From the NCBI GenBank assembly GCA_944364655.1, contig CALVWG010000080.1:2634-66633 (forward strand): 64,000 nucleotides of DNA, in the 5' to 3' direction. This document shows, in pieces, positions 2,731-54,132 of this stretch. This stretch comes from an uncultured Bacilli bacterium. GTDB taxonomy: Bacteria > Bacillota_I > Bacilli_A > RF39 > UBA660. The stretch's first letter is position 1; the number at the start of each line of letters is the position of its first letter. The translations under genes were made by a program, and so were the position numbers. The notes under the pieces were generated by a model, which was not told the DNA's origin, made no database searches, and saw nothing but the letters and a program-made list of their open reading frames with translations.

Positions 2731-5274
2731 TTAATTTTTTTGATTAATATCCATTTTTAATTCATAAAGGGCATTTAAAGCTTCCATTGGTGTCATTCTT
2801 AATGGATCTAATTTTTCTAATTTTTCTTTCAATAAATCTTTTTTCTCGTCTGGAAATTCCATAACTAGTTGTAATTGTTCATCATGTTTTTGACATTTAG
2901 GCTTTTTTTCATAAATTGCTAATGTTTTTAAAGCATCATTAATAACTTCATCTGGAAGGCCAGCTAATTTAGCGACGTGAATTCCGTAGCTTTTATCAAC
3001 GGAGCCATTTTTTATTTTATGTAAAAAAGTAATCTTGCCATCTTCTTCGATCGCGCTAACATGAACATTTTTAATTGCAGGAATTGAATTTTCTAAAACA
3101 GTTAATTCATGATAGTGAGTTGAAAATAGTGTTTTACATTTAATATGGGTGCTAACATATTTTAAAATGGCTTCAGCTAAACTCATTCCGTCATAGGTCG
3201 CCGTTCCTCTTCCTAATTCATCAAATAAAATCAAACTATCTTCAGTAGCGTTACAAATTGCATTTTTGGCTTCTTTCATCTCAACCATAAAGGTTGATTC
3301 TCCACTTACTAAGTCATCGCTGGCACCAATTCTTGTAAATATCTTATCAATAATTGGTAAATTTGCTTTTGAGGCTGGAACATATGATCCCATTTGGGCC
3401 ATGATAATTATGATAGCAAGCTGACGCATATAAGTTGATTTACCACTCATATTAGGGCCTGTTATTAAAAGAGTATTAATGCTACCATCCATGACACAGT
3501 CGTTTGCAACGTAATCCATATTACTAACTCTTTCTATAACTGGATGACGGCCATTTTTAATATCAATAACGTGTTCATGATTAATAGTTGGTCTTACAAG
3601 TCTATATTCTTCAGCACAGACAGCCAAAGCTGTTATTGCATCAATTTTAGCTATACATGTTGCAGTATCTTTTAATTCCAATATTTGTTTTTTAATAATT
3701 TCTTTAATTTCAACAAATAAGTTATATTCTATATCAATAATTTTTTCTTCAGCATTTAATATTAAAGCTTCTTTTTCTTTTAATTCAGGACTAATATAAC
3801 GTTCTGCATTAGTTAAAGTTTGTCTTCTTTCCCAATGAAAGTCTTCAGAAACATTAGCTATTTGGCCTTTAGTAACTTCAATGTAATAACCAAATACCTT
3901 ATTGTAACCAACTTTTAAGTTTTTAATGCCTGTTTCTTCTTTTAATTTAGCTTCAAAATTAGCAATAAATTCTTTCCCACCACTTCTTATATCTTTTAAT
4001 TCATCAAGCTCGGCATTATAACCTTCCTTGATTAAAAAACCTTCTTTTATGGTAACTGGCGGATTTTCATAAATAGCTTTTTCTAATAATTCAAAAAGAT
4101 CTTGATGAGTATTAATTTTTAAATCAAAATGTAGTTCTTGAATAATTCTAGCAATATCTGGTAAAACCTTTAAGCTAGCTTTTAATTGTAATAAATCACG
4201 GGCATTTAAATTACCACAGGAAATTTTGCCACATAATCTTTCTAAATCATATATTTGATATAAATTATCTCTTAGTTGTTCTTTTAAAATAAATTCATTG
4301 TTTAATTTTTCAATTTTATTATAACGATCAATTATTAATTCTTCTTTTTTTAAAGGGTTCATTAACCAATTTTTAAGCATTCTTGAGCCCATACTTGTTT
4401 TTGTTTTGTCTAAAAGCCATAAAAGAGAAAAAGTTCTTTCTTTTAGTCTTAATGTTTCTATTAACTCTAGATTTCTAACTGTATGAACATCCATTTCTAA
4501 ATAATCGTCTGGATAAACTATAGTTGCTGGTTTAAAATGACTTAAATCTTTTAATTCTTTGACAACTAGATAATAAAGTAAATTTTTTATAGCAAGAATA
4601 TAATGCTCATCTTCTAAACTAGCATAGATTTCTTCATATTGTCCTTCTAAATAATTATTATTATAAGATACTTCTATACCATAAGTTCCTTTTAATAAAG
4701 AGACTAATTCTAAATTTTCATTATTTTCTAAAACAATTTCTAGAATACCTAAATTTAAAATAGTACTAATAAGTTTATCTATATGATGAGGAATTATTGA
4801 AACAAAAATAGAACCAGTTGAAATATCGGCATAACAAATTGTATAAATATAATTAAAATCTAATACGGAAGCAATATAATGATTATCATGTTCATTTAAT
4901 AATTCTAAATCGACAACTGTTCCTTTACTTACAACTTGGACAACGCCCCTTTTAACCATTCCTTTAGTGTTTTTAGGATCTTCTAACTGTTCACAGATGG
5001 CTACTTTATAACCTTTATTAACTAATTTTTCTAAATATGGTTTAACAGAATGAAAAGGAACTCCACACATAGGAATTCGTTCGTCTAAGCCGGCATTTTT
5101 ACCAGTCAATGTTAATTCAAGTTCTCTTGAAGCAGTTATTCCATCTTCAAAAAAAAGTTCGTAAAAATCTCCAATTCGATAAAACAATAATTCTTCTTCA
5201 TAATCTTTTTTAATATCTAAATATTGTTTCATCATTGGACTTAGATCATCATAATTTACTTCACTACGCTTCAT
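2731..5274 (-). CDS. mutS: DNA mismatch repair protein MutS
   Basis: 847 aa. Walker A GPNMSGKSTYMRQ, the conserved STFMVEM and DELGRGT motifs, and the N-terminal mismatch-binding region (MMKQYLDIK...GDFYELF). Confidence 0.95.
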   Translation of the reverse strand: MKRSEVNYDDLSPMMKQYLDIKKDYEEELLFYRIGDFYELFFEDGITASRELELTLTGKNAGLDERIPMCGVPFHSVKPYLEKLVNKGYKVAICEQLEDPKNTKGMVKRGVVQVVSKGTVVDLELLNEHDNHYIASVLDFNYIYTICYADISTGSIFVSIIPHHIDKLISTILNLGILEIVLENNENLELVSLLKGTYGIEVSYNNNYLEGQYEEIYASLEDEHYILAIKNLLYYLVVKELKDLSHFKPATIVYPDDYLEMDVHTVRNLELIETLRLKERTFSLLWLLDKTKTSMGSRMLKNWLMNPLKKEELIIDRYNKIEKLNNEFILKEQLRDNLYQIYDLERLCGKISCGNLNARDLLQLKASLKVLPDIARIIQELHFDLKINTHQDLFELLEKAIYENPPVTIKEGFLIKEGYNAELDELKDIRSGGKEFIANFEAKLKEETGIKNLKVGYNKVFGYYIEVTKGQIANVSEDFHWERRQTLTNAERYISPELKEKEALILNAEEKIIDIEYNLFVEIKEIIKKQILELKDTATCIAKIDAITALAVCAEEYRLVRPTINHEHVIDIKNGRHPVIERVSNMDYVANDCVMDGSINTLLITGPNMSGKSTYMRQLAIIIIMAQMGSYVPASKANLPIIDKIFTRIGASDDLVSGESTFMVEMKEAKNAICNATEDSLILFDELGRGTATYDGMSLAEAILKYVSTHIKCKTLFSTHYHELTVLENSIPAIKNVHVSAIEEDGKITFLHKIKNGSVDKSYGIHVAKLAGLPDEVINDALKTLAIYEKKPKCQKHDEQLQLVMEFPDEKKDLLKEKLEKLDPLRMTPMEALNALYELKMDINQKN

Positions 5275-5337
5275 ACTACACCTCTTGTTAATCGTAAATT
5301 TATTATATCACAAATTAGGAAAATAACTAAAAAAACA

Positions 5338-5952
5338 TTATTTTATTATGTCATCAGTAATAAAATAACTATTTTTATAAATATTCATATCTTTTTTTAA
5401 ATTATGAATACCATAAATCATAACTTCTTTTTGCTTTTTTATAAAAAAATCTTCTAATTTTTCACTCATAATATTTTCTAATAAACATATAAAATCATAA
5501 TTATCATAATTTTCTTCACTATTTAAAACATAATTTAAAACACCAAGTTTTTCATTTTTTTTATTTGAATACATTTTTTTAATAACAGAATTGAAAAAAC
5601 TCATTATATAAACGTTTTTATTATTATATTTTTGGATTAGATTTTGAAATTTTTTTATATCAATGTTATTTTCTTTAATTTCAAGTAAAATTATTTTAGA
5701 AGTATTTAGTTTTAAAACATCTTCTAATGTTATTGTATTGTATTTTTGCTTTAATGTTTTATAATCAGTTAGTGAAATTATATCTAAATCAATCATTGGA
5801 TTATGATTAACTATAAATATTTTATCTTTAGTTGTTCTAATATCACACTCAAAGCCAGCATAATTATCGTTTGCAATAGCTTCCTTAAAAGCTGAAATAG
5901 TATTTTCTTTCGAATCGTTTTTTAAACCTCTATGCGCTATTAATTTTTTCAT
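5338..5952 (-). CDS. glycerophosphodiester phosphodiesterase family protein
   Basis: N-terminal HRG...ENT...AF...A...G....ECDIR...D....V.HN signature of GDPD/UgpQ-type enzymes. Confidence 0.65.
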   Translation of the reverse strand: MKKLIAHRGLKNDSKENTISAFKEAIANDNYAGFECDIRTTKDKIFIVNHNPMIDLDIISLTDYKTLKQKYNTITLEDVLKLNTSKIILLEIKENNIDIKKFQNLIQKYNNKNVYIMSFFNSVIKKMYSNKKNEKLGVLNYVLNSEENYDNYDFICLLENIMSEKLEDFFIKKQKEVMIYGIHNLKKDMNIYKNSYFITDDIIK

Positions 5953-6002
5953 ACTAGATTATATGAAAAAAGATATTTATTTTAACATTTTTAAATATCT
6001 TT

Positions 6003-6617
6003 TTATAAATTTTTTCTGGTTCTTTTAAATTCTGAAGCAAAAGGCTCAGTCTTTTTTAATGTTTGTAAGCCATTATAAATTCTTAATTTAACGGCGTCAA
6101 ATGTTAAGCCTAAATCACTAGCAATTTTAGTAGTGTTTTCTTCATTTATGATAGAAGCTATTACTGCTTGCTTTTCTTTTTTCCCTAATTTAGCTTTTTT
6201 TAACCAATAAACTATATCTAAACATTCATTTATTTTTTCTAATTTGACACATTCTATTTCGTAAGAGTCTGATAAAGCCAAAAAATCGCTAGTTAATACT
6301 TGTTTTAATTTTCTTAAATATTGATAATCTTCAAAACTTAAGTCAAAATATTCTAAAATTTCAGAGGAATTTAATGAATAAATATCATTTAAAAGAAACT
6401 TATTAATTCTAATAAATTTTAAATCTTTTTTATTTAAACCTAAAAGAATACCTAATCTTTGAAAGAATTCTTGATAAAATGAATTGATGTTAGTTCTTTT
6501 TTTGGCTTTCATTTCTAAAATACAAAGTTCAACTTCTTGAAGTAAATCTTCTTCTTCCATTTTGATTTTATAATTATGCAAAATGCTTTTAGCTATTAAA
6601 ATATATTTTTCTTTCAT
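6003..6617 (-). CDS. putative sigma-70-family (ECF-like) RNA polymerase sigma factor
   Basis: 204 aa. The C-terminal helix-turn-helix (TKIASDLGLTFDAVKLRIYNGLQTLKK) resembles sigma region 4 and the N-terminal acidic/aromatic stretch resembles region 2. Weak. Confidence 0.4.
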   Translation of the reverse strand: MKEKYILIAKSILHNYKIKMEEEDLLQEVELCILEMKAKKRTNINSFYQEFFQRLGILLGLNKKDLKFIRINKFLLNDIYSLNSSEILEYFDLSFEDYQYLRKLKQVLTSDFLALSDSYEIECVKLEKINECLDIVYWLKKAKLGKKEKQAVIASIINEENTTKIASDLGLTFDAVKLRIYNGLQTLKKTEPFASEFKRTRKNL

Positions 6618-6670
6618 ACTTACACCTTTTAGTAAGATTTTAAAGAACTAAGATATAATTGTCAACTTTT

Positions 6671-7609
6671 TTAACGTTGATCACTAATAGTTGCATTGCT
6701 ATTACTTGCTGATAAAGCTGTTAATGGATCATATGGAGCACCAGAAGTTGTTCCAGAAAGTAAGGCAATATCTACGGCATTTTCAGGTATACCCCATGAA
6801 TTACCAGAAAAGACAAATATTGCTCCATCAACTACAAATCCTCTTGTATTATAGGTAACGTTATTCATAATTGTACCAGTTGAATTAGGATTTAAATATG
6901 CAGGTTGACGAAGAGAATAAAAAATATTTTCTTTTACCAATAAATTTGTGGCACTTCCTTGGGTTACAAATCCTCGGTTTACTACCCAATTTGATGAATC
7001 GCCTGCTTGAGGTGGTCCATAAATTTCACAATTAATTATTTGATCATTTGTCCCGGCAACTTGAATAAATTCGACTGGATAAGGGATATTACTAGTTATA
7101 TTTAAACCATCAATAGTAACGTCATTTCCTGTTATTAAAAAAGGAATAATTGAATTTTCTAAGACAATATTGGCACCTCTAGTTCCTTTTAAGGTTATTC
7201 CGGATGTATTCAAAACTAATTGATTATTTAAGGGATAAGTCCCTGGTAAAACATTAATTATTCCATTAGGTTCTACAACATTTAGAGCCTCTTCAATTGT
7301 TTGATATGGAGAAATTTGACTTCCATCTCCTCCTGGGGCGGCCGATGATTCTACATATAAATTATATGGATTTGGCTCGACACTGCCAGTAGCTCCTTGA
7401 GGTCCAGTAGGTCCCGTTGGACCCGTTGCTCCATCACTACCTCTTATACCTGTTGGTCCCGTTGGTCCAGTAGCACCTGGGATACCATCAGATCCTTTTG
7501 GGCCCGTAGGTCCAGTTGGTCCTGTTGCACCTTTAGTATTTGGAATCGGATAAACATAGACATAAGATGGACAGATATTTTTCTTATTATCATTTTTATT
7601 ACAATACAT
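6671..7609 (-). CDS. collagen-like (GPT/GXT triplet repeat) surface protein with C-terminal right-handed beta-helix (pectate-lyase-like) domain; BclA-like
   Basis: About 60 aa of uninterrupted Gly-X-Thr triplets ([28 protein letters not shown]...). C-terminal repeats of the type N..L.GT..L...GITL.G and TIDGLNIT are typical of parallel beta-helix proteins. Short N-terminal targeting-like segment. Confidence 0.8.
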
Positions 7610-7664
7610 TACTATCCTCCATTTTTTCCATATATTATATGAAATTTAGAGGCCCTTAATTACT

Positions 7665-9241: not shown

Positions 9242-10090
9242 TCACCTATTTTTCTTATTAGGTTCAGAATAAGACTTAGATTCTATAACATTAGCTTCAT
9301 CTAAATTATCATTTATTGAATCATCAATTGACTTTTCAAAATATATTGATCTATTTGATGAATAAGTAAGTTTATTTCGATCACGATTATTTTCTGTTCT
9401 TTCACATCGTTTTTCTATTATCATTTTCATGGTTGTTTTGCCAAAAAGTAAATATCCTAATTTTTCTTCATCTTTTCCTCTTAAAACTTCAGAAACAAAA
9501 GAAGGGCTAACACCACAAACTTTTGAAATATATTGATCAGTTGCTGTAAAGTTTGATTCTAATAAAATTTCTATTATTCTTCTAGCATTTTGTTTTCTAT
9601 AAAATTTCTTAACGATGGAAGCTTTAGAAATTTTGGTAATATTTACTCCAGAAGTAACTAAGCCATTAAATTTTTTAAATAATTCACTTTCGCTTTTTTT
9701 CATATTTTTGCTATTATTTAAAATTAACTGGCAATAGAAATCCGGATTATAAATTGAACTAGATTTCTTATTATATAAATCTAAAGCATTTAAAATAAAA
9801 CTTTCTGTAGTATTAAATAACGCGGCTATTTCAATAAAAGTCATTCCTTTTGAAGATAGATTTACAATATCTTCTAAAAAGTCTTTATCTATGAAATTTT
9901 TCATATAATTTCTTTCAAAGATAATTTTATTGTATAAAGCTAAATTATAAAATTCTGCTGAAGGCTTTTTTAATTCATTTATCCATTTATTTACTAAGCT
10001 TTTATCTAAAGACAGAATATCTGCTATTTCTTGATCTGTTTTATGCTCATTTGCCGCTAAATAATATACTTTTTCTTTTAAAGTCTCCAT
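9242..10090 (-). CDS. hypothetical protein with two helix-turn-helix-like segments (282 aa)
   Basis: ORF tightly packed between lepA and hemW. Segments DQEIADILSLDKSLVNKWI and ISKVCGVSPSFVSEVLRG look like DNA-binding HTH motifs. Confidence 0.5.
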   Translation of the reverse strand: METLKEKVYYLAANEHKTDQEIADILSLDKSLVNKWINELKKPSAEFYNLALYNKIIFERNYMKNFIDKDFLEDIVNLSSKGMTFIEIAALFNTTESFILNALDLYNKKSSSIYNPDFYCQLILNNSKNMKKSESELFKKFNGLVTSGVNITKISKASIVKKFYRKQNARRIIEILLESNFTATDQYISKVCGVSPSFVSEVLRGKDEEKLGYLLFGKTTMKMIIEKRCERTENNRDRNKLTYSSNRSIYFEKSIDDSINDNLDEANVIESKSYSEPNKKNR

Positions 10091-11973: not shown

Positions 11974-12306
11974 TTAAGTAAATAAAGCTTTGAAAACATT
12001 AATCATGCCATCAATTCCTTTACTCATTACGGTTTCAATTGCACTAGAAAACATTACGCCAGCTTTAGTTGTTTGGTTAGAATAATCTTGTTTAATATCG
12101 GTAACATAATCTTTTATATCCACATCTAAACCGTTTCTTATATCTTCTTCAAATTGTTTCATTTTTTCATCGGTTATAGTTGTTTTTTCACTTAATTTGG
12201 CTTCATAATAGCCAGTTGAAATAGCTATCGTTAATGAAATATAGACAACAAACAAAATGCCAAGTGCTTTTAAAATCCAAGAGCCTTTGGCCTTTTTTTT
12301 CTCCAT
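11974..12306 (-). CDS. small membrane protein (YqxA-like position)
   Basis: 110 aa with one N-terminal TM helix. Lies between lepA and the spoIIP-like gene, where yqxA sits in Bacillus. Confidence 0.45.
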   Translation of the reverse strand: MEKKKAKGSWILKALGILFVVYISLTIAISTGYYEAKLSEKTTITDEKMKQFEEDIRNGLDVDIKDYVTDIKQDYSNQTTKAGVMFSSAIETVMSKGIDGMINVFKALFT

Positions 12307-13223
12307 TAAGAGTTGATCACCTCTTTTAAAGCAAGTGATAATACATTGATTGTATTATTTACTTCACTTATTTTATTATATTGTCCTCCTAGTTCAATTA
12401 GAATAGTATTTGCAGAAAAATCTTGATTGTAAATTCCATTAACACCATTGCCACCTTTTTTCATAATTCCTCTTGATATATTGGGTACTTTTTGATTTAA
12501 AACTTGAGATAATTTTTCAGCTAAATTTAAATTTTCTAAATATCCTTCATGATCAACACCAATAACAAATAAAATTTTGGCATAGGTTTTACCATTATAT
12601 TCTAAAATTGAGCTTTCATACGGTATAGCATCTCGATGAATGTCAATAAAGTATTTTAAAGTTGAAAATTTATTTAATGCATCATTTAATAAAAGTTTGC
12701 TTGCTTGGTAACTTGATGCATAATTCCAATTATTGATTTTTAAAACTTCACTTATTTTGTTAGTTTCAACCATCGTATTAATTCCTTCATTATTTAATGT
12801 TTCTCGTAGACGATATGCCGCTAACATAACTGTTGGAACAAGATCGTGTTCTGATAAAACATCGCCATTATATTCCTCACCTTGATGAGTATTATATAAA
12901 TAAATAACAGGGCTACTCGCATTTTCACTAGGGTTAGGATCAGGAGTATATTCGGCTTTAGATTCTTCTCCATTATAAATTTCATCTTGATATTCTTGCT
13001 TGCCAATTGTGTAATCTAATAAAAAATCAAAAACATCAGTTTCTACTTCACTGCTATCCGTTAGAAGATTACTTTTTAATAAAAAATCAATTATTTTATT
13101 TTGCGTTAAAAAAGAAGAAAAAAACGACAAACAAGTAGCAAAAGAAATAACTATTAAACTAATTATTAAAAAAAATTTTAATCTAAACTTAGTCTTTTTT
13201 TGACTGATAAATCTTTTGCGCAT
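12306..13223 (-). CDS. spoIIP: stage II sporulation protein P-like (SpoIIP family)
   Basis: N-terminal TM anchor. The IYLYNTHQGEEY motif resembles the SpoIIP (I)YHTH..E.Y signature. Conserved position between the gpr-like gene and lepA. Confidence 0.6.
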   Translation of the reverse strand: MRKRFISQKKTKFRLKFFLIISLIVISFATCLSFFSSFLTQNKIIDFLLKSNLLTDSSEVETDVFDFLLDYTIGKQEYQDEIYNGEESKAEYTPDPNPSENASSPVIYLYNTHQGEEYNGDVLSEHDLVPTVMLAAYRLRETLNNEGINTMVETNKISEVLKINNWNYASSYQASKLLLNDALNKFSTLKYFIDIHRDAIPYESSILEYNGKTYAKILFVIGVDHEGYLENLNLAEKLSQVLNQKVPNISRGIMKKGGNGVNGIYNQDFSANTILIELGGQYNKISEVNNTINVLSLALKEVINS

Positions 13224-13275: not shown

Positions 13276-14019
13276 TTAAGACATTATTATTTTATTAATT
13301 GATTTAGAGATTATTTTAGTTACAATATCTAAATCTTCTTCTAAATTAAATTTTTCTAAATATGTTTTGTGATGTTTTAAAAGAGTTGGAAAGCCAATGG
13401 CTAAAACTGGAATATTAAATGTAGATTTCGAAATTGTTTTATTACTTCTTATTTGATCAGCAAAGACCATACCACAGTCATTTAGTTCAATTGTTCGATT
13501 CAAAAATTTACTCTGATTTGTTACAAAACTATCTAATAAAACTATTACATCTGGTTTTAAATCTTTGACAACCATTTCAATTAATCTAAATGATGATATG
13601 CCTGTTTTGTTAGTTGTTTCAGGACTAAATAAGGCCACTTTTGGGATGGTTAAAAAATCATTATATTGATTAGTGGCAATTAAGCTATTTAATACTTTTG
13701 GTCCAAAAGAATCTCCTAGTATTGAAGAATTACCTAGACCAATAAAAAGTATCGTTCCACCTTTATGATATTTTGTTAAAAAGGTTTTAAATGTTTTTTG
13801 AAAAATTCTTTCTAAAACATTTTGATTTTCATATAATACTTGATCATCAAAAGAAATAGTAAAAAAATCTCCTTGTCTATTATGATATATTTTAGCGTCA
13901 TTTTCATTTAAAGCATAATGTTTAATTAATACATTTTTTTCACGTTTTTGATTAACTAAATGGTCTTTTTCTAAAGATACCCCTGCATCTAATAAAAGAT
14001 TTTGCTTCATAATAATCAC
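13276..14019 (-). CDS. GPR/YyaC-family endopeptidase (germination-protease-like, short form)
   Basis: ILFIGLGNSSILGDSFGPKV matches the GLGN..GD..GP motif of GPR and hydrogenase-maturation-protease fold proteins. Occupies the gpr position. 247 aa is shorter than canonical Gpr. Confidence 0.5.
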   Translation of the reverse strand: MIIMKQNLLLDAGVSLEKDHLVNQKREKNVLIKHYALNENDAKIYHNRQGDFFTISFDDQVLYENQNVLERIFQKTFKTFLTKYHKGGTILFIGLGNSSILGDSFGPKVLNSLIATNQYNDFLTIPKVALFSPETTNKTGISSFRLIEMVVKDLKPDVIVLLDSFVTNQSKFLNRTIELNDCGMVFADQIRSNKTISKSTFNIPVLAIGFPTLLKHHKTYLEKFNLEEDLDIVTKIISKSINKIIMS

Positions 14020-17560: not shown

Positions 17561-17926
17561 TTATTCTTCATACGTACATTTTTTTACTTTATTTTCATAT
17601 GTAATTAAAATTCTTTTTGAAGTTGAAATCATTTGATTAGTTTGGGGATCTTTTAAATCGTTGTCTTCAATTAAGCCTTCTTTTAAAATGTCATCAACTA
17701 ATACGGTACATGATCCGCTACTTTGACAACTTTGCTTTAAAGTTTTATTCATATTTAAATCAATGTAAGTACATGCTGCATTTTCTAATGTTTTTTTAAA
17801 ATTTTCATATTGCTCATCTTGTTCTTTTGTATAAGTAGCAGATAAATTACTAACAATAACAGTTCCAATTAAGGCAATTAAACCAATAGTTATAATTATT
17901 TCTATTAATGTAAAACCTTTTTTCAT
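17561..17926 (-). CDS. type IV prepilin-like protein (ComGC/PulG-like pseudopilin) with class III signal
   Basis: MKKGFTLIEIIITIGLIALIGTVIV is the canonical KG|FTLIE prepilin-peptidase site plus hydrophobic helix. Four Cys in the C-terminal domain. Confidence 0.75.
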   Translation of the reverse strand: MKKGFTLIEIIITIGLIALIGTVIVSNLSATYTKEQDEQYENFKKTLENAACTYIDLNMNKTLKQSCQSSGSCTVLVDDILKEGLIEDNDLKDPQTNQMISTSKRILITYENKVKKCTYEE

Positions 17927-22820: not shown

Positions 22821-23786
22821 TTAAGAAATAGTTTCTACAACTTGATCATTAATAGATATTACGACATTATTATTCGTATCAACATCAGTTAAAATTTCAT
22901 CATTAGCAGTTATATCATAAGTTTCACTGGCAATTTTTTTATTAGCTAAATCATATAAATAAAATGTATTATCTACAGTTGTACAGCTTAAATATTTGTC
23001 TATAAAAGATAAATTAGCAAAATCATCTGTTAAAATAGCTTCATTGTTATAATTTATAAGATGATATATTTCTTGGTTGTTTTTAGTAATTATATACGTT
23101 CCTGTATAATCAATTATTGTATCAGCAATATCTACTGTTAATGTAGCGCCATTTTTGTCAGTTAAATTCCAATTACCATTTTTTAAAGTAATAAAGTAAT
23201 CAGTTGCTAATTTGCCCTCGCTATTGACTTCATTTTTTAAACCAATAAAATCATATTCAAATGGTAAAACTATTTCAATAGTATCGGCTAACTTAATAAC
23301 GCCATATTTTTGAGCACTATTTTTAACTATTAGCATATTATCGGCTAAACCAACGCCATAATCTTTAGCACTTACATAAGCAGCCATTTTATATGATGTA
23401 TTATTGACTATATCATAAACAAAAGCTTCTTCACTGGTTTCATTATCATTTAAAATAGCATATCTATTATCGATAATTTTTATTCTTTCGTCCTCATTAC
23501 TTTCGAAAGAATCTAAGCCATAATTGGAATCATCGACCGTATTTAATGCATAATTACAATTTTTAGTAGTACACTCATATATACCTAATAAACTACCATC
23601 TTCTTTGTAAAACCAAAGTTTATTATCAAAGAAAAATTCTTTTCCAACATTTTCTTTAACTGGACTTTCTACGGGACCAGAAAAGCGAAAATAAAGGCCT
23701 AAGCAGGCTAAAGGAACAAAAATAATTAATAAAATGATTATTAATATTAATGCACCTTTTTGTACTTTTTTATCCATTTTAATCAC
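22821..23786 (-). CDS. membrane-anchored extracellular repeat protein (YD/WG-like repeats), 321 aa
   Basis: N-terminal TM (LILIIILLIIFVPLACLGLYF). Recurring KYGVI..LAD / YDL(I/A)NKK motifs and a CxxxC motif shared with the upstream paralog. 8-nt overlap with the upstream gene. Confidence 0.55.
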   Translation of the reverse strand: MIKMDKKVQKGALILIIILLIIFVPLACLGLYFRFSGPVESPVKENVGKEFFFDNKLWFYKEDGSLLGIYECTTKNCNYALNTVDDSNYGLDSFESNEDERIKIIDNRYAILNDNETSEEAFVYDIVNNTSYKMAAYVSAKDYGVGLADNMLIVKNSAQKYGVIKLADTIEIVLPFEYDFIGLKNEVNSEGKLATDYFITLKNGNWNLTDKNGATLTVDIADTIIDYTGTYIITKNNQEIYHLINYNNEAILTDDFANLSFIDKYLSCTTVDNTFYLYDLANKKIASETYDITANDEILTDVDTNNNVVISINDQVVETIS

Positions 23787-26064
23787 TTTCCTTTACTTTA
23801 GGAAAGCCCACTTTATCTGTATATGTGTTATTAGAATTACCTATTTCAACATAAACATTTTCTGAATCAAAAGTTACTCTAAAAGCTTTTGTTCCTTCAC
23901 CATAATAATTAGTAATATTTAATGTCAAACCACTATCATTTTCTTCAGTGATAGTAACTTCTTTATTGTTATAATCATATACATGAACTTTATTATTTAA
24001 AACAGCCGCATAGTATTCATCATATAATTCAATATAATTATATGAATTACTTGAAACTTCTTTGTCATAAGTATGAACAAAATACATTCCATCTTTATAA
24101 GTCTTTAAGTATTTATGAGTGCTATCGACTTCTAAATAATCAACTATGCTACTATTTTTATCAGCAGTTATTTTTTCGCCTTCAGCATCGTATAAAGCAT
24201 ATCCATTATCGCTTTCGACAACATAGTATTTACCTAATTTTTTAATGCTTTTAAAATCAAAAGATAAAACAGGTACTACTTCACTAGAATTAATACTTGC
24301 AATACCAAATTTACCACTTGATTTAGACTTGGCAATAAACATTAATTGATTAGTATTTACAAAGCTTAAACTATTCATGCTTGTATAAGAAGATGTATCA
24401 ACGCTTTCATAAGTAGCTAATTCTTTTTTATTGATTAAATCATATAGAACAATTTTATCACCATCGGATACAAAGACAAATTGTTTATTAATCAAAGGTA
24501 TTGCACCAACATTTTTGCTTTGATCTTTTTCTTTATTGTTGCCAATTGTTTCAGCAAAAAATGAATCATTTGCTAATTTACAATTATTTAAGGTAGAAGA
24601 ATTACTATCAACTTCATTATGATTAGTACAAGGATAGCTACCAATTAAAGTTTCTTTCTTTTCATCAGCGTAAAAATATAAATTTCCTTTAAAATAACTC
24701 ATAAATGCTAATTTGCTTGATAATTTTCCTTCAGATAGATTGATTGAATAGTTTTCAAAATCATCACCATTATAAATATTAATATTTAGTATATTATTAT
24801 TTAATTCATAATCATAAGCTTTTTCAGTTTTAACTAATTTATAATCTTCATAAGTTAATTTTGGATTATAATTTTGATTTTTTAAAGCTAAGCCTTCATA
24901 GCTCATTAAATTGCCTTCATAATCACTTACGAAAAGTTGATTATTAATAACATAAATTAATACATCACTTAAAAGTGTTACATAATCATAGTCTTTATTA
25001 GTTACTTGACTTGCGTTGTAATCATAAACGTTATAAGTTTTGGCAAGAACTTCTAAAACAACATGTTTATCATCAGCCGCAACGATAGGACTTGTAAATG
25101 CTTTAGTTAATATTTTATTATTTAAATCAGTCAAATAATAATTATTGTCTTTTCTAACAGAAATCAACTTTATTTCCTCTTGATTTGGTAAAATTCCTAA
25201 GGAATCATAATTATAAGGAATTACCGTTTCTAATTTATCATCACTAAATTTTTCTAAGCCATACAAACTTTCTTCATTTTTTAAAACAACATAATCAGCA
25301 TATTCATCATAACTTTTAAGATCAAAAACAGTTTTTAAAGTTTTGTTTTCAATTAAATCATACAATTTAATACTTTTATCATTCTCATCTTTATGGTCTA
25401 CAATAAAAACGAATCTTTCTTTGTAAATTTTGGCTGGAACAACTAATTTCTCGCCTTTTTCATCAACATTTATTGGTCCTAAGAAATTGTCACTGTTATT
25501 AACATCCGCCATTTTGCAAAGATTTTCATCTTTATTTTCACATTCATAAGTTCCTAATTCTTTGTCGTTTTCAAAAAAAACAAGTTTACCATTTTCATAT
25601 TTGTAATTATCCATCATTAAGATAACATCTGGTTCATTTTTTTCTAAAGTTTTATCTTTTTTTAATAAGAAAAATAAACCAACACTAATTAATATTAATA
25701 ATAAAACTATCCCACTTATAATTAAGACCTTTTTTTTCTTAGTTAAAGAATTCCATTTATCTTTTAGATTTTTAAAAAAATTCTTTTTATTTTTTTTATT
25801 AGAAGAATCATCATCTTCAACTATTATGGTTTCATCTTCTTGATTTTCTTTTTGTAATTCTTCTTTAGTATTTACAACTGTTTTGAATATTAAATCCGAA
25901 TCATTCATTTGATCATCAAATTCGTTTTGATATTCATTATATTCTTGTTCAATATTATTTAATGCTGCAATGGACAAATCTTTAAGAGTTCCAACTTCTT
26001 TAGTTGTTTCGAGCGTTTCTAGCTCATCCGTTTCATTAAACTCTTCTTTGTTCATTTTTTTCAC
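23779..26064 (-). CDS. large membrane-anchored extracellular repeat protein with acidic cytoplasmic N-terminal tail, 761 aa
   Basis: About 110 aa D/E-rich N-terminus, one TM helix (VLIISGIVLLLILISVGLFFLL), then about 600 aa with periodic (V/L)YD(Y/L)(N/I) motifs suggesting a beta-propeller or WG-like repeat fold. Confidence 0.6.
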   Translation of the reverse strand: MKKMNKEEFNETDELETLETTKEVGTLKDLSIAALNNIEQEYNEYQNEFDDQMNDSDLIFKTVVNTKEELQKENQEDETIIVEDDDSSNKKNKKNFFKNLKDKWNSLTKKKKVLIISGIVLLLILISVGLFFLLKKDKTLEKNEPDVILMMDNYKYENGKLVFFENDKELGTYECENKDENLCKMADVNNSDNFLGPINVDEKGEKLVVPAKIYKERFVFIVDHKDENDKSIKLYDLIENKTLKTVFDLKSYDEYADYVVLKNEESLYGLEKFSDDKLETVIPYNYDSLGILPNQEEIKLISVRKDNNYYLTDLNNKILTKAFTSPIVAADDKHVVLEVLAKTYNVYDYNASQVTNKDYDYVTLLSDVLIYVINNQLFVSDYEGNLMSYEGLALKNQNYNPKLTYEDYKLVKTEKAYDYELNNNILNINIYNGDDFENYSINLSEGKLSSKLAFMSYFKGNLYFYADEKKETLIGSYPCTNHNEVDSNSSTLNNCKLANDSFFAETIGNNKEKDQSKNVGAIPLINKQFVFVSDGDKIVLYDLINKKELATYESVDTSSYTSMNSLSFVNTNQLMFIAKSKSSGKFGIASINSSEVVPVLSFDFKSIKKLGKYYVVESDNGYALYDAEGEKITADKNSSIVDYLEVDSTHKYLKTYKDGMYFVHTYDKEVSSNSYNYIELYDEYYAAVLNNKVHVYDYNNKEVTITEENDSGLTLNITNYYGEGTKAFRVTFDSENVYVEIGNSNNTYTDKVGFPKVKESD

Positions 26065-31128: not shown

Positions 31129-33072
31129 TTATGGTGTTAAAACAACGCGGAAAGTGCTAGCTCCATAGGCCTGCCCTTCTGTTGGAGAAAATGCAAAGAT
31201 GCCAGCATCTGTTCCATCTGTATATGCATTGCCTCTATTAATCCAAGGTCTACTACTATATAGTAATGCTGCATTATCAAAATGCCAGCTTCCAATTGGA
31301 ATTGTTACTGCCAAATATGTTTTATTATTAAACGGACCCAGTTCGCCGGTAGCATCTCCCAGAATTCTTCGCTGATATTGTTCATCCAATGTTGAATATG
31401 TATAAGTATCATAATATTTTTTATCTGGAAAATCATAGCCCGTTGTTAATTCTATTAAACCTGATGTATCATTTTCTGATGTTGGATAGCCAAAAGTTCC
31501 ATTAAATCCAGAATTTTTCATACTATTTTTTCCACTCATGGGTTTATTGCTTTGATCTAACATAACTCCCATTACATATTCCCAATTACCTCCTGCCATA
31601 TCGTATATTCCTGTTATATTTCCTGTTGTGCTTGCTAATATGCTATCTGGATATGCTATATTACAAGAATAATCTGAGCACCATATATTACACTTTTCAT
31701 TAGTTTGTGTGTAACCACACGTTGGTTCATTATTGGCTGCATATCCTGTTAGATTGGATGAATTATTGTTTATTCTAACGCTTGTTAAACTTCCATATTT
31801 ACTGTGTTGTAAATAGGCTACTGCTCCCCATTCGGTATTCTTCATCATGTGACTATCTAAATTTCTTTTGTAATCATACGATGTATAAAAGGCGTTGGCT
31901 ACTTGAATATTTCGCCATGAGCTTACATTTGGTTTGATTTGAATGGCTTCGCTATTTCTAACGTTATAGTCTGATGTTAATGTTGTTCCCGTTTCAAACT
32001 TACCTACCCAAAATCCTGTACTTGGTATACTTAAAAATGCTGGATGAGTCATGTAATCTCCTACTTGACAGTTTCCTGTCGCACCACTTTCCATTGGTGT
32101 TGTACATTCTCCATCTATTGAATCACTTGTATTATAATCACCAAAGATAATTGGTATTTCATGAACTTTACTTTCATCTATTTCGGTTAAATCTTGATAC
32201 TCACCTAAGTCCCATAATTGATATCGATATTTTGGTATCCACACAAAGTATGATTCTATTGCATCTTCTGGTATTGTTGAGCCTACACTGTAATTAGTTA
32301 TTGAACTTTCATCTTTTAAAATAATTGCATTTGCCCATTCTTTGTTTTCATAGTTATACCATTCTTTTTCTAGATCAGCTCTTTTTACTGTGCCATCATT
32401 GTCGATTGTTACAGCTATTAATGTATCTTTTAATACTGGGTCTGCTCCATTTAATAACGTTTCTTTATAATTATTTGTTTTTGTTGCTGTTGATATAACA
32501 TTTATGCTTCCTTCAAATTTTGTGTTCATGGCTTCATTTCCTGTTGCCTCATCCATCCATAAATAAAAATTGTATGTTTCACTTTCATTTTGTTTTAATT
32601 TTCCACTTGCTATTATTATTGATTCATCTAAATTAGTTATTTGTAATTCTTCTGTTGCGGTATTAAAATTACTTACTGTTCCTAAATTTGTTCCTGTTGC
32701 TGGTTTACTTTCTGTACTTTTATATATGGCATATTTTAACCATTTTTTTTGCATTGTATTTGTTGTTAATGTATTTAATGTTACATTATATGCTGCATCA
32801 TTTGTACATGTATTAGTAATTTTAAATGTATATGGTGTTGCTGATAATCCTTTTTGATCACTTACAGGATAAGTATTATGTAATTCTACTGAAGAAGAAA
32901 GTTCTTCAAATTCAACACTAAAGCATCCCACTTCAACGATATTTTCTCCTCCTGTATAACTTGCTACCCATAAAGCATAACTTTGATAGGCCATTAAGCA
33001 TATTCCTATTCCAACTGTTATTATTGCTAACAATATTTTATATTTTAATTTCATCTTTCTCACCTCATACAT
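31129..33072 (-). CDS. secreted/membrane-anchored protein, paralog 1 of a three-member family with C-terminal FGE/SUMF1-like (C-type-lectin-like fold) domain
   Basis: N-terminal signal/anchor MKLKYKILLAIITVGIGICLMAY and a variable about 200 aa beta-rich module. The about 400 aa conserved block has PNVSSWRNIQVANAF, MMKNTEWGAVAY, ITGIYDMAGGNWEYVMG and RGNAYT, which parallel the FGE-sulfatase family motifs (..SW.dA.a.., ..eaEWeyAar, GlyDMsGNvWEW, RGGSW). Cys-rich. Confidence 0.7.
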   Translation of the reverse strand: MYEVRKMKLKYKILLAIITVGIGICLMAYQSYALWVASYTGGENIVEVGCFSVEFEELSSSVELHNTYPVSDQKGLSATPYTFKITNTCTNDAAYNVTLNTLTTNTMQKKWLKYAIYKSTESKPATGTNLGTVSNFNTATEELQITNLDESIIIASGKLKQNESETYNFYLWMDEATGNEAMNTKFEGSINVISTATKTNNYKETLLNGADPVLKDTLIAVTIDNDGTVKRADLEKEWYNYENKEWANAIILKDESSITNYSVGSTIPEDAIESYFVWIPKYRYQLWDLGEYQDLTEIDESKVHEIPIIFGDYNTSDSIDGECTTPMESGATGNCQVGDYMTHPAFLSIPSTGFWVGKFETGTTLTSDYNVRNSEAIQIKPNVSSWRNIQVANAFYTSYDYKRNLDSHMMKNTEWGAVAYLQHSKYGSLTSVRINNNSSNLTGYAANNEPTCGYTQTNEKCNIWCSDYSCNIAYPDSILASTTGNITGIYDMAGGNWEYVMGVMLDQSNKPMSGKNSMKNSGFNGTFGYPTSENDTSGLIELTTGYDFPDKKYYDTYTYSTLDEQYQRRILGDATGELGPFNNKTYLAVTIPIGSWHFDNAALLYSSRPWINRGNAYTDGTDAGIFAFSPTEGQAYGASTFRVVLTP

Positions 33073-35907: not shown

Positions 35908-37497
35908 TTAAGGGGTTAAAACGGTGCGAAAACCCATAATTAAATCTGCGTGGCCTCTTACAAAGTAAAAACTAAAAATACCTGCTACTGTGCCACTTGT
36001 AAATAAGCTTCCTCTTACAAACCATGGTACTGATAAATTTATAAATGTTGAATTATCAGCATACCAGCTTCCTACTTGTGCAATTTGATTATAATATTCT
36101 GCGGTATTAAATGGCCCCATTTCGCCTGTTGCATCGCCTAATATTCTTCTTGAAAAATCCGTACTGTTTTGACTATAGCTATATACATCATAATACTTTT
36201 TATCTGGCCAATTATAGCCACTAGTTAATTCTGTTAGACCTGATGTATCACTATCACAGTTTGGGCAGCCAAATGTTCCATTAAATCCAGAATTATCTAC
36301 ATTATGTCTTCCACTCAATAAATTTCCATTTCTATCAACAGTTACTCCCATGACATATTCCCATGATCCGCCTGACATATCATAGATTCCTGTTATATTA
36401 TTTGTTGTACTTGCTAATACACTATTTGGATATGCTATATTGCAACTATCATCATTACATTGTTTATTACATTCTTCATTAGTATTTGTCCAACCACATG
36501 TTGGTTCGTTATTGGCTTGATAACCTGTTATATATGATGAATTATTGTTTATTCGAACACTTGTTGCTGAACCATATACACTATGTTGTAAGTAAGCTAC
36601 TGCTCCCCACTCGGTATTCTTCATCATGTGACTATCTAAATTTCTTTTGTAATCATACGATGTATAAAATGCATTAGCTACTTGTATGCCTCGCCATGAA
36701 CTTACATTTGGCTTGATTTGAATTGCTTCGCCATTTCTGACATTGTAATTTGCTGTTAATGTTGTTCCTGTTTCAAATTTGCCGACCCAAAATCCTGTAC
36801 TTGGTATACTTAAGAATGCTGGATGTGTCATGTAGTCACCTATTTTACAATTGCCTGTTGCGCCACTTTCCATGGGTGTTGTACATTCATTTTCTTTATT
36901 ATCACTTGTATTGTAATTGCCAAAGATAATTGGTATTTCATGAACTTTACTCGTATCTATTGTTGTTAAACTATTATATTGACCCAAATCCCATAATTGA
37001 TATCGATATTTTGGGATCCATACAAAATAACTTTCAATTTTATCTTCTGGTATCACTTCGCCAGCTAAATAATCTTCTGTTTCATCTTTTAATATTATGG
37101 CATTGGCCCAATTCTTTTTTTCGTAGTTATACCACTCACTTCCAATGTCGGCTTTTTTGACTGTCCCATCACTATCTATTGTTACTGGTATTAGTTCATC
37201 TTTAATTATTGGATCTGTTCCGTTTAATATTGCTTCACTGTATCCTTTTTTAAAATATAAGGTACATTTTGTTAAACTTGTAGTTACATTTTTGACTATT
37301 GGACTCCACGACTCATAGTCCCATATTATATAAGCACCATTTGTACAACTGCTTTTTGTTTCATCAAAAATATTTTCTCCTTTTGTTGGAATAGTTTTTG
37401 TTTTTTCATTATTTACATATATTGCTAATTTTATATTTTCAAGATTATCTAATTGTTTCTGAGTTTCTTTTTTATTCAATATACCCCCCCAGAACAA
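35908..37497 (-). CDS. paralog 2 of FGE/SUMF1-like-domain family; main ORF lacks signal peptide because of +1 frame offset at G7 tract (phase-variable gene or frameshifted pseudogene)
   Basis: The 529-aa ORF begins at TTG with no signal. The conserved C-terminal about 420 aa is 85-95% nt identical to paralogs 1 and 3. See the upstream signal-peptide fragment. Confidence 0.65.
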   Translation of the reverse strand: MFWGGILNKKETQKQLDNLENIKLAIYVNNEKTKTIPTKGENIFDETKSSCTNGAYIIWDYESWSPIVKNVTTSLTKCTLYFKKGYSEAILNGTDPIIKDELIPVTIDSDGTVKKADIGSEWYNYEKKNWANAIILKDETEDYLAGEVIPEDKIESYFVWIPKYRYQLWDLGQYNSLTTIDTSKVHEIPIIFGNYNTSDNKENECTTPMESGATGNCKIGDYMTHPAFLSIPSTGFWVGKFETGTTLTANYNVRNGEAIQIKPNVSSWRGIQVANAFYTSYDYKRNLDSHMMKNTEWGAVAYLQHSVYGSATSVRINNNSSYITGYQANNEPTCGWTNTNEECNKQCNDDSCNIAYPNSVLASTTNNITGIYDMSGGSWEYVMGVTVDRNGNLLSGRHNVDNSGFNGTFGCPNCDSDTSGLTELTSGYNWPDKKYYDVYSYSQNSTDFSRRILGDATGEMGPFNTAEYYNQIAQVGSWYADNSTFINLSVPWFVRGSLFTSGTVAGIFSFYFVRGHADLIMGFRTVLTP

Positions 37498-37595: not shown

Positions 37596-38384
37596 TCAAT
37601 ATTTTAGAGAAGAGAATATTGACTTTGATAACATTTCTTTTTCAGATAAATAATGATTGTTTTGATAAAAAAAGTGTCTAGTTTCTTTTTTTAAAGAAGA
37701 AATATTGTTATCAAAATTGTTTTCGATTTTTTTATAGGGAAAAGAATATAACATTCTTTCTAAATAAAAGCGATTAAGTAAATATTTTTTGTTTTTTAAA
37801 ACGATTAAAAATTGAATTAATAAAACTATACATATAAAATAATTATCAATTGGATAAAATATGTTGTAAATTAAAAAAAGAATAAAAAAGCTAAATGATA
37901 TTAGTTGATAAAAGAAAAATGCTTTTTGATAAGAAAAAAATTTTTCTAAAAATGTATGCATTATTATACTGCCATCTAAAGGAATTATTGGTAATAAATT
38001 GAAAAGAAGAATTATATTGTTATAAGTATTGATTAAGATATAGTCATTTGGTTTAAAATAAATTAAAATTATAGCTAATATAAATTGGATAGTAACTCCT
38101 GAAATAGCAATTATAAACTCTTTATTAATAGAAGAATTTATTGGCTTATCTATTTTAGTTATTCCTCCAAAAGGAAATAGCTCTACTTGAATCACTTTAT
38201 ATTTAAAAAATTTAATAGCTAGGACATGACCTAGTTCATGTAAAAAAACAATTAAAAATATATATATTACATTTTTAAAATAACCGCATAAAAAAGCTAA
38301 AAGAAAAAAGCAATAAGTAGTAATATTTATTTTAAATTTCTTTTTGATATTCTTCATAAGTAATAAACTCGCCATCTTTAACAA
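37596..38384 (-). CDS. spoIVFB: M50 site-2-protease family intramembrane metalloprotease, SpoIVFB-like
   Basis: HELGH (HExxH) in a TM helix and LPIIPLDGS (LDG motif) downstream. Sits in the conserved position before rplU. Confidence 0.6.
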   Translation of the reverse strand: MLKMASLLLMKNIKKKFKINITTYCFFLLAFLCGYFKNVIYIFLIVFLHELGHVLAIKFFKYKVIQVELFPFGGITKIDKPINSSINKEFIIAISGVTIQFILAIILIYFKPNDYILINTYNNIILLFNLLPIIPLDGSIIMHTFLEKFFSYQKAFFFYQLISFSFFILFLIYNIFYPIDNYFICIVLLIQFLIVLKNKKYLLNRFYLERMLYSFPYKKIENNFDNNISSLKKETRHFFYQNNHYLSEKEMLSKSIFSSLKY

Positions 38385-38955
38385 AGGCTAAATAATAGTA
38401 GTTATCAGTGGTATTACCTATAACTGTTCCACTTTCGATATAATCATATAATTTTAAGTTGGTGTTATTAATATTACCATACCAAATATCGATTCCGTTA
38501 ACACCTTGAACGATGTAGACATTGCCATAGCCTTCTTTTTCACCTTGAAAAACAAATAAACCGCTTTCTAAAACTGATATAGCACTATCTTTTGTGGTAC
38601 TAATTTTATAGCCGTCTAAATATTTTTCTTTGTTTAAAATTAAATCGTTATTGGAAACTAATTGCTCAGTTGGTTCAGTAACACTGGGTAAAATATTTCC
38701 AAATGAATTATGGTACCATTCATTAATTTTGGTAAAGGTTAAATTGCTTTGCAAAACTGTATTTTTAAAGTTAGCTAAATTATCTGGACTTAATTTAATA
38801 TAAATTGTACAACCTAAAACTAAAATGACACTTAGTAATACTTTAGTAAATATTTTGCTGATTTTTTTATCGTCTTTTTTTGTTTCTGAAAATTCATTTT
38901 CTCTTCTTTTTTTATGTCTTAATGCGATCATTTCTAGTTCATCCATATTATTCAC
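38332..38955 (-). CDS. spoIVFA: degenerate LytM/M23-domain membrane protein, SpoIVFA-like
   Basis: N-terminal TM. C-terminal GYGNVYIVQ...IDIWYGNI...LAFVKDG aligns to the M23 GYGN.V.I.H / ..Y.HL / HLHFE motifs with the catalytic His replaced, as in SpoIVFA/SpoIIQ. Upstream of the M50 gene as in Bacillus. Confidence 0.55.
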   Translation of the reverse strand: MNNMDELEMIALRHKKRRENEFSETKKDDKKISKIFTKVLLSVILVLGCTIYIKLSPDNLANFKNTVLQSNLTFTKINEWYHNSFGNILPSVTEPTEQLVSNNDLILNKEKYLDGYKISTTKDSAISVLESGLFVFQGEKEGYGNVYIVQGVNGIDIWYGNINNTNLKLYDYIESGTVIGNTTDNYYYLAFVKDGEFITYEEYQKEI

Positions 38956-45433: not shown

Positions 45434-46081
45434 TTATATTTCACTTTTCTTTATTATATAAATTTTTTTGTTTTTATAAAAAGCATAAAAAATATTTTTA
45501 ACTTCTAAATTCTTTTTGCTTAGTTCTTCTTTTAACCAAATTTTATCTTTTTTTATAAAATCTAATGTTTTTTTATTAATTTCACCATCTAGTATTAAGG
45601 GCATCGGATAACTTGAAGCAAGCCGAAATGGTCGATATGGAAAAATGGATAATTTACCGTTTGGTTCAAGAAAAGCATATTCTATTTCTTTTAAATCATG
45701 GATACTTTTTTGGCGCATGCTTAAAAGTAAATCGTCCATGCTATACCGTTGTTTAATCATTTCTTTATAATTTACTTTACCATTACAAATAATTAAGGAA
45801 GGTTTACCGCCAAAGATAGTTCTGAATGTTCTTGATTTTATTCCAACAAACGCTAAGACTATTTCTAAAAGTCCCAAAACACTTAAAGGAATAATTGTTT
45901 GCCATAAGCTGTTTTCAGTATTTTCAATAGAAATTGCTACTAATTCAGCCATTAATATCGAAACTATCAAATCAATAATTCCTAATTGGCCTATTTCTCT
46001 TTTCCCCATAATTCGATAGAGCATTACAATAAAAAAATAGAAGAAAACGGTTCTAAAAACGACACTTAAAATAGATTCCAT
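45434..46081 (-). CDS. DUF421 (YetF-like) membrane protein
   Basis: Two N-terminal TM helices, RIMGKREIGQL...DLIV motif and a YetF-type C-terminal domain. Confidence 0.55.
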   Translation of the reverse strand: MESILSVVFRTVFFYFFIVMLYRIMGKREIGQLGIIDLIVSILMAELVAISIENTENSLWQTIIPLSVLGLLEIVLAFVGIKSRTFRTIFGGKPSLIICNGKVNYKEMIKQRYSMDDLLLSMRQKSIHDLKEIEYAFLEPNGKLSIFPYRPFRLASSYPMPLILDGEINKKTLDFIKKDKIWLKEELSKKNLEVKNIFYAFYKNKKIYIIKKSEI

Positions 46082-54106: not shown

Positions 54107-54132
54107 AAAAAAATCTTTCAAAGAAAGATTTT
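54107..54132 (-). terminator. rho-independent terminator ending the Tad-locus transcript
   Basis: AATCTTTC-aaa-GAAAGATT perfect 8-bp stem with A7 on the + strand (T7 on the minus strand) between the pilin gene and ruvA. Confidence 0.55.

Follow-up and report, generated by a model that had tools for sequence, protein, structure and literature searches.

A collagen-like stalk of variable length and a conserved beta-helix head in a family of putative spore-surface proteins of Bacillota

We analysed a 64,000-nucleotide (nt) stretch of DNA from an uncultured Bacilli bacterium (hereafter the window), which carries, between mutS/GDPD and hemW/lepA, a gene for a collagen-like protein ending in a beta-helix domain. 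The gene occupies positions 6671-7609 on the minus strand and is, by the list of open reading frames (ORFs) and the sequence itself, a complete ORF of 312 amino acids (aa), with its stop codon at 6671-6673. A GGAGG ribosome-binding site is read at 7616-7620 (minus strand), 6 nt before the ATG, and GGAGG recurs at the equivalent position upstream of the start in most related loci. Comparison of N-termini across the protein's relatives sets off an N-terminal peptide of 26 residues (7532-7609, minus strand). This is followed by a collagen-like region of 17 Gly-X-Y triplets (residues 27-77; 7379-7531, minus strand), located by Pfam and a frame scan, and by a C-terminal right-handed parallel beta-helix domain of ~236 residues (residues 78-312; 6674-7378, minus strand), recognized from an AlphaFold2 (AF2) model, Foldseek, a profile search and conservation. 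The identical protein, again with 17 triplets, is called on two further metagenome contigs from other samples.

The collagen-like tract cannot be a chance occurrence. Its 17 uninterrupted triplets form the sole such run in any frame of the window, and the match to the Pfam Collagen family (E = 1.1e-8) exceeds that family's cut-off. The initial annotation had described about 60 residues of perfect Gly-X-Thr/Pro triplets at 7390-7560; by our count the tract spans 51 residues at 7379-7531, with Thr or Pro at the Y position of 11 of the 17 triplets (Thr in 10 and Pro in 1, the others being K, D, R, D, Q and V) and the GPT triplet itself in only 6. The underlying DNA is 56% GC, against 27% for the window. 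To describe it as highly repetitive goes too far: with Tandem Repeats Finder, a 9-nt unit was detected in 3.9 copies that match at 69% (score 35), direct repeats reach at most 54 nt, at 63-74% identity, and self-identity, 56% at an offset of 9, peaks at 66% at an offset of 54. The stalk DNA is weakly repetitive because synonymous codons interrupt the repeat.

In the 26-residue N-terminal peptide we found no signal peptide and no match to any Pfam or NCBIfam family model. The peptide contains two Cys and is a Cys-poor form of the family's short Cys-rich motif, M-x-C-N...CC-x-P-C-x3-C-x-V-P-G, in which the Cys cluster abuts the first collagen triplet in most family members. Collagen-like proteins of this general kind could instead be adhesins on the surface of vegetative cells, as are streptococcal Scl1/Scl2 or Legionella Lcl, and NCBIfam models for SclA, SclB and Lcl do match the collagen region, and that region only, below threshold. 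These matches reach just ~28-30 bits against cut-offs of 325-500, however, and a search of the protein for a signal peptide, LPXTG motif, S-layer homology (SLH) domain or other wall anchor returned none. The family, moreover, has a sigmaK-type promoter and a spore-gene context, as described below, and we regard a vegetative adhesin as very unlikely.

We consider the assignment of the C-terminal domain to the beta-helix fold correct because family models, AF2, Foldseek and coil spacing all agree on it. Among family models, DUF1565 matches at 20.7 bits against a cut-off of 20.3, the Pfam Beta_helix match (E = 6e-4) falls under its cut-off, the NCBIfam NosD/beta_helix matches are sub-threshold, and a precomputed match to PF22842 (Pel9A-like_beta_helix) is on record for the identical protein. 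The AF2 model, built with 41 family sequences, gives residues 78-270 (6800-7378, minus strand) a predicted local distance difference test score (pLDDT) of 85-97 and contains ~20 short beta strands. Foldseek comparison with PDB returned, at probability 1.0, only right-handed parallel beta-helix proteins (E = 1.9e-5 to 1e-3). Pectate lyase Pel9A (1ru4, E = 1.9e-5) was the best match, and the others included a rhamnogalacturonan lyase of polysaccharide lyase family 9 (PL9), YbhC, a fucoidan lyase, a glucanase of glycoside hydrolase family 87 (GH87) and phage tailspikes; identity to these solved structures is 10-18%. A profile of 27 diverse domain sequences matched PL6 alginate lyases, pectinesterases and NosD in PDB (E = 7.5e-7 to 1e-4), with the matches confined to the N-terminal cap (profile positions 20-124) and not extending to the catalytic coils. 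Single-sequence phmmer found no solved relative. The initial annotation had proposed that a beta-helix replaces the TNF-like head of BclA. The fold stands, and a Pfam search of the protein at E < 0.1 did not find BclA_C (PF18573, C1q/TNF-like); the domain measures ~236 residues where 210 had been given.

In both close and broad alignments, Asn228/Asn250 and Arg212/Arg234/Arg256 are invariant at a spacing of 22 residues, which is one coil of the helix; so placed, they would be expected to stack as an Asn ladder and an Arg ladder. Further invariant polar residues are D204, D261 and D280. The head is thus a member of the right-handed beta-helix superfamily, and of no characterised enzyme family.

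This fold raises the alternative that catalysis is the protein's primary role, the beta-helix being an active polysaccharide lyase or hydrolase on acidic glycans of the spore, the mother cell or the environment, and the collagen a spacer or oligomeriser. The nearest structures are indeed PL9 and PL6 lyases, fucoidan lyase, GH87 and pectinesterases; invariant polar residues (R212/R234/R256, D204, D261 and D280) fall on successive coils; and beyond the spore-formers, in Arthrobacter for instance, this domain stands at the head of large secreted multidomain proteins. Against this, sequence similarity to solved enzymes stops at the N-terminal cap, identity to the solved structures is low, the beta-helix is short (~190 ordered residues) and non-catalytic binders are common among beta-helix proteins. 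We therefore think it unlikely that the protein is first of all an enzyme.

Tailspikes among the structural neighbours also raise the possibility that the gene encodes a phage tail fibre or tailspike, or is left over from a prophage. PHROG tail-fibre families match residues 26-76, and BFVD holds phage proteins that join collagen repeats to a beta-helix. Every PHROG match, however, is confined to the collagen repeat, and a tblastn search of 50,697 phage genomes with the head gave no match; on these two grounds we rejected a phage origin. There are also no phage genes nearby, the flanks being the housekeeping-type mutS/GDPD and hemW/lepA, and the related loci, too, are on chromosomes, among housekeeping genes of various kinds. 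Such an origin is extremely improbable.

A second allele of the locus, from another sample (L072, encoding protein P0001), has the same flanking gene ends at ~98-99% DNA identity and encodes 24 triplets where the window encodes 17, owing to a 63-nt (7-triplet) insertion at about 7459/7460. The two alleles differ very unevenly along their length. The head (237 codons including the stop) carries 11 synonymous and 0 non-synonymous changes and the N-terminal peptide (26 codons) 1 and 0, whereas the 50 aligned codons of the stalk carry 8 synonymous and 9 non-synonymous changes in addition to the one 63-nt indel. Similar variation is found elsewhere in the family: proteins P0004 and P0005 have their N-terminus and head in common and contain 29 and 9 triplets, respectively; one cluster at 90% identity includes lengths of 379, 388, 391, 394, 397 and 400 aa, which lie multiples of 3 aa apart; and the tract ranges across the family from 3 to >40 triplets, reaching several hundred residues in Geosporobacter.

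The expectation that tract length differs between strains is borne out by these comparisons. The mechanism put forward for it, slippage of a simple 9-nt repeat, does not fit: the indel is a single copy of a higher-order unit with near-identical segments of ~25-30 nt at its bounds, the stalk DNA is weakly repetitive, and the stalk substitutions cluster alongside the indel. We rejected a 9-nt tandem repeat as the slippage substrate given the weak Tandem Repeats Finder and self-identity signals and the 63-nt indel, and we prefer unequal recombination or mispairing between higher-order units because what was gained or lost is a bounded higher-order unit. Together, these findings show that stalk length varies by gain and loss of higher-order units and that the head is under strong purifying selection.

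A search with the head domain yielded 727 clusters at 90% identity; among the 120 best of these, coverage is at least 99% of the query, identity 70-100% and length 237-394 aa. An exhaustive search of 50%-identity representatives gave 636 matches that separate, at a clear break in score, into a tight and a broad group. In the tight group (>175 bits) the head stands at the end of the protein, usually with a collagen tract in front of it. In the broad group (30-42% identity), which includes Actinobacteria such as Arthrobacter, it is a ~230-residue module near the N-terminus of large multidomain proteins, and several of the proteins read have a signal-peptide-like N-terminus.

Across 185,579 species genomes, the tight form occurs at 65 loci. 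Its carriers include many uncultured Bacilli metagenome-assembled genomes (MAGs), Candidatus Faecisoma, which NCBI files under Mycoplasmatota, and MAGs labelled Oscillospiraceae, Clostridia, Eubacteriales and Selenomonadales. Isolates also carry it (Paenibacillus oralis, P. solanacearum, P. validus, Neobacillus jeddahensis, Paucisalibacillus globulus, Alkaliphilus peptidifermentans, Geosporobacter ferrireducens, Mobilisporobacter senegalensis and Anaerocolumna sp.), and cluster membership adds the isolate genera Halobacillus and Ruminiclostridium. We take the isolate genera with the tight family (Paenibacillus, Neobacillus, Alkaliphilus, Halobacillus and so on) to be endospore-formers. Relative to the window protein, the heads are 56-79% identical when the best aligned segment is counted and 58-75% identical where a match covers at least 230 of the 236 residues. 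In the source records, members carry generic names ('collagen-like protein', 'Collagen triple helix repeat', 'DUF1565 domain-containing protein' or 'hypothetical protein'). The tight family is large, unnamed and confined to Bacillota, in genomes labelled Bacilli, Clostridia and Negativicutes.

At the other end of the protein, modules are interchanged among members: the short Cys-rich peptide, an NTTRR-F1/CBM_4_9-like domain, DNRLRE/CBM96 and BclA_C all occur, and one protein (P0140) combines CBM96/DNRLRE, BclA_C and the beta-helix with no collagen tract. Several Bacillota members among loci L046, L041, L044, L047, L057 and L062 have an N-terminal domain of ~138 residues (beginning MSNIALQIERL) that matches no Pfam or NCBIfam family. 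Some loci hold tandem collagen-protein paralogues. In one MAG (BRZ_EV bin65), the collagen tract of a member at positions 3729-4700 of L028 is broken by an in-frame stop (GP*GIS, where L018 reads GPQGIS), which resembles the bclA1 pseudogenisation reported in C. difficile; the same MAG has a second, intact paralogue (L013). Four small plasmids of Priestia megaterium encode a 370-aa protein, annotated as hypothetical, with a 52%-identical head and no collagen tract (at positions 807-1919 of L074, from the SR7 plasmids); a Spo0E-family phosphatase gene lies near it on plasmid p2, the one inspected.

Promoter sequences link the family, indirectly, to sporulation. A common -10 element serves sigmaE and sigmaK in C. 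difficile and B. subtilis; the -35 element differs, being ATA for sigmaE and AC for sigmaK, and bclA1-3 are under sigmaK control (PMC3789822). Upstream of the window gene, CATATAATA (7633-7641, minus strand, 32 nt upstream of the ATG) matches the sigmaK/sigmaE -10 consensus CATAnnnTA. Among 54 family loci, CATAnnnTA was present 18-60 nt upstream of the start in 23; in 1000 mononucleotide shuffles the count averaged 1.4 and never exceeded 6, and among control ORFs having a Shine-Dalgarno sequence it was 14 of 394. Of the 54 loci, 13 had the full motif, AC-N16/17-CATAnnnTA, which occurred 0.14 times on average in shuffles and in 6 of the 394 controls; these 13 include upstream regions of 53-57% GC, where composition would not predict the motif.

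Flanking genes at several related loci point the same way. In an all-against-all comparison of flanking ORFs, a protein of 355-389 aa joining a glycosyltransferase family 2 (GT2) domain to tetratricopeptide repeats (TPR) is encoded directly downstream on the same strand at 11 loci (L005, L009, L012, L015, L020, L029, L034, L037, L040, L049 and L062), which come from Oscillospiraceae, Paenibacillus, Neobacillus and another Bacillota MAG. Its best NCBIfam match, under the cut-off, is the SunS peptide glycosyltransferase family, and in architecture and size it matches C. difficile SgtA, a 358-aa protein with GT2 and four TPR that adjoins bclA3 and adds O-GlcNAc to Thr of the BclA3 collagen region (PMC7157674). 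At L068, cotJB-cotJC lie directly upstream and point away from the family gene, with spoIID and spoIIID nearby. At L070, it comes after a gene of the APH family, a Pfam family that includes CotS-type spore-coat kinases.

The members at L040, L043 and L048 begin with an NTTRR-F1 domain (E = 1.3e-62). In B. megaterium BclA1 (954 aa, encoded on pBM500), residues 1-159 form this domain, and a GFP fusion of those residues localises to the developing forespore (PMC4674009). On pBM500 of P. megaterium QM B1551 (L075, positions 4001-6865) BclA1 is annotated only as 'NTTRR-F1 domain', its gene being flanked by two glycosyltransferases and two methyltransferases; between its first 159 residues and the N-terminal domain of the family protein from Paenibacillus oralis, identity is 56%.

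The window itself carries sporulation genes: spoIIP (NCBIfam, 151.7 bits against a cut-off of 123), gpr, an adjacent M23+M50 pair in spoIVFA-spoIVFB order and a YetF-family gene, at 12306-13223, 13276-14019, 37596-38955 and 45434-46081. The genomes closest to it are small ones of uncultured Bacilli (one is a closed MAG of 1.31 Mb) or belong to Candidatus Faecisoma, and the genes listed suggest that this reduced, 27% GC lineage forms endospores.

Our favoured interpretation is that the protein is probably a spore-surface fibre, of the exosporium or outer coat, built on the BclA plan with a different head. The exosporium-hair role offered by the initial annotation finds backing at the level of the family, in the promoter, the SgtA-like and cotJ neighbours, the NTTRR-F1 relatives and the sporulation genes of the window, and does not follow from this gene alone. 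As promoter and family suggest, the protein would be made in the mother cell late in sporulation, where synthesis would require no signal peptide. By analogy with BclA and with trimeric beta-helix tailspikes, the beta-helix may gather three chains and nucleate the triple helix of the 17-triplet collagen. Collagen rises 0.286 nm per residue, giving a predicted stalk of ~15 nm for the 51 residues here and ~21 nm for the 24-triplet allele. The short N-terminal peptide would attach the fibre to the spore and leave the beta-helix as a distal knob, as the NTTRR-F1 relatives support. Given the SgtA-like glycosyltransferases at family loci, Thr residues of the stalk are probably O-glycosylated. Stalk length shifts between strains through the higher-order repeat units, with the head held constant by the purifying selection seen between alleles. 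With its Arg and Asn ladders on a pectate-lyase-like scaffold, the head probably binds or cleaves an acidic glycan; the Arg ladder is what suggests an acidic polymer as the ligand, and the fold neighbours are glycan lyases and hydrolases.

Polarity is the least secure step in this scheme. In the reverse arrangement, the beta-helix would be a basal trimerising module seated on a conserved spore-envelope component, and the N-terminus would be the distal tip, which differs between lineages, being a Cys-knot peptide in this protein and a CBM-like or C1q-like domain in others. The pattern of conservation fits this arrangement equally well, as head identity stays at 58-75% over classes and habitats, no non-synonymous change separates the alleles and the N-terminal modules are freely interchanged. 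The conserved end of a fibre protein is, as a rule, the attached one, and the Cys cluster at the first triplet resembles a chain-stapling collagen cystine knot. The NTTRR-F1 precedent argues in the opposite direction, since the N-terminus of B. megaterium BclA1 is the forespore-localising end (PMC4674009), and B. anthracis BclA is N-terminally anchored according to work cited in PMC4674009. In addition, a 26-residue peptide is an unlikely functional tip. On this evidence we favour N-terminal anchoring and find reversed polarity quite unlikely.

Several observations weigh against a spore-surface fibre with a distal head. The promoter match in the window is only partial, confined to the -10 element, because the -35 position (7659-7663, 17 nt upstream of CATATAATA) reads GTAAT, without the AC of the GTAAC found in relatives. 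No homologue of the SgtA-like glycosyltransferase was found in the 64-kb window, and the gene neighbourhood is not conserved across related loci. MAG taxonomic labels may be unreliable, and one partial match lies in a bin labelled Desulfovibrionaceae. The head keeps its 58-75% identity across human-gut, chicken, deep-subsurface and other non-gut sources, which is unusual for an exposed knob and could mean contact with a conserved endogenous partner, fitting an anchor rather than a tip. Two of the most conserved segments, residues 204-208 and 270-312, have pLDDT <50 in the monomer model; highly conserved yet poorly modelled as a monomer, they may become ordered only in the trimer or with ligand. 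Finally, literature searches on collagen and beta-helix spore proteins, on DUF1565 with spores and on the Oscillospiraceae exosporium found no description of the family.

The sequences nonetheless point to a large, conserved and previously undescribed family of collagen-stalked, beta-helix-headed putative spore fibres. To our knowledge, what is understood of exosporium hairs comes almost entirely from B. anthracis/cereus and C. difficile, whose knob is C1q/TNF-like. Many other Bacillota, among them abundant gut Oscillospiraceae and small-genome uncultured Bacilli, appear to combine the collagen-stalk plan with a different and highly conserved head. If the spore location is true, the family would offer a candidate mediator of spore-host or spore-matrix interaction in the transmission of gut commensals, a sequence marker of sporulation capacity in MAGs, and a natural case of variable stalk length with a fixed head. 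The question of spore-surface location is directly testable because the family has cultivable members. More tentatively, and with considerable doubt, conserved glycan-binding or glycan-cleaving heads, recognisable by the Arg ladder R212/R234/R256 and borne on collagen stalks, might constitute a spore-surface organelle that is widespread in Bacillota of gut, soil and marine habitats and differs from the BclA nap with its C1q heads; in it, lineage-specific N-terminal anchors and strain-variable stalk length would tune the adhesion of commensal Firmicutes spores to an acidic polymer or its digestion. Candidate polymers would then be mucin glycans, extracellular polysaccharides or the spore's own polysaccharide, and the carriers would include reduced-genome 'Bacilli' filed under Mycoplasmatota.

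The initial annotation had also pointed to the genes adjoining the collagen gene. One encodes a 160-aa protein that does have a signal-like N-terminus, a C-terminal transmembrane segment and a basic tail, as the initial annotation had indicated of a secreted or anchored neighbour; a conserved linkage is not supported. By tblastn of all the window neighbours, neither this protein nor the 204-aa 'sigma-like' protein, hemW, the helix-turn-helix protein or any other neighbour is encoded near the family gene at any of the 65 related loci, and we rejected a conserved operon with any of them. A gene for the putative sigma factor, the 204-aa protein (6003-6617), does adjoin, with only weak matches to region 4 (Pfam E = 0.046; NCBIfam E = 5.5e-4) and no sigma-70 region 2, so that its identity as a sigma factor is not established. 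A near-consensus sigmaA-type promoter of its own lies directly past the stop of the collagen gene (TTGACA-17-TAAAAT, 6637-6665, 11 of 12 matches). Between hemW and lepA, a 282-aa protein (9242-10090) gives several weak helix-turn-helix matches and belongs to no clear family. Farther away, the window contains a cluster resembling those for type IV pili or competence pseudopili (54131-60534), with a protein bearing a prepilin N-methylation motif, two T2SSF proteins, a T2SSE ATPase and a ParA/MinD-like ATPase, and a second pilin-like gene lies at 17561-17926. Four large ORFs (23779-26064, 31129-33072, 35908-37497 and 54780-56660, encoding 761, 647, 529 and 626 aa) have no significant Pfam family, and only the 761-aa ORF gives a sub-threshold ETRAMP match.

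Compared with known systems, the protein most resembles the BclA family (B. anthracis BclA, C. difficile BclA1-3 and B. megaterium BclA1). The likeness extends to the overall order of a putative N-terminal attachment segment, a GXY/GPT stalk and a globular C-terminal domain, and to the lack of a signal peptide. In both, the stalk is the hypervariable part between strains (PMC13188886 for BclA; the alleles described here), and the sigmaK control of bclA1-3 (PMC3789822) has a probable counterpart in the sigmaK-type promoter seen at the family level here. A GT2+TPR glycosyltransferase adjoins some family members as SgtA does bclA3 (PMC7157674), and some share the NTTRR-F1 N-terminal domain with B. 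megaterium BclA1. In contrast to BclA, the head is a right-handed parallel beta-helix of ~236 residues and not a C1q/TNF-like jelly roll of ~135 residues, and a short Cys-containing N-terminal peptide is specific to the family described here. The head is also far more conserved across classes, at 58-75% identity, than are the ~135-residue BclA-type C-terminal domains, which have only 17% identity among them (PMC4674009). Because the defining C1q-like C-terminal domain is absent, the protein is not a strict BclA member, though probably BclA-like in its working.

With the beta-helix lyases and esterases (Pel9A 1ru4, PL9 5olq, PL6 and pectin methylesterases), the head has in common the fold, the putative Asn ladder and an N-terminal cap motif, P-F-x-T-I-x-x-A-x-x-x-x-x-x-G-x-I-x-V-x-x-G-T-Y. 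It differs from them in its size, with ~190 ordered residues against 300-450, in a conserved C-terminal half that has no counterpart among solved structures, in its fusion to a collagen stalk and in the low identity, 10-18%, already given. Phage fibres that combine collagen and a beta-helix (BFVD A0A6J7WIE9) appear alike in design only, as a trimeric collagen stalk bearing a beta-helix module for glycan recognition or cleavage. Their heads have no detectable sequence relationship to the one described here, which is encoded in a chromosomal, non-phage context behind a putative sporulation-type promoter, and the phage proteins are structural analogues only.

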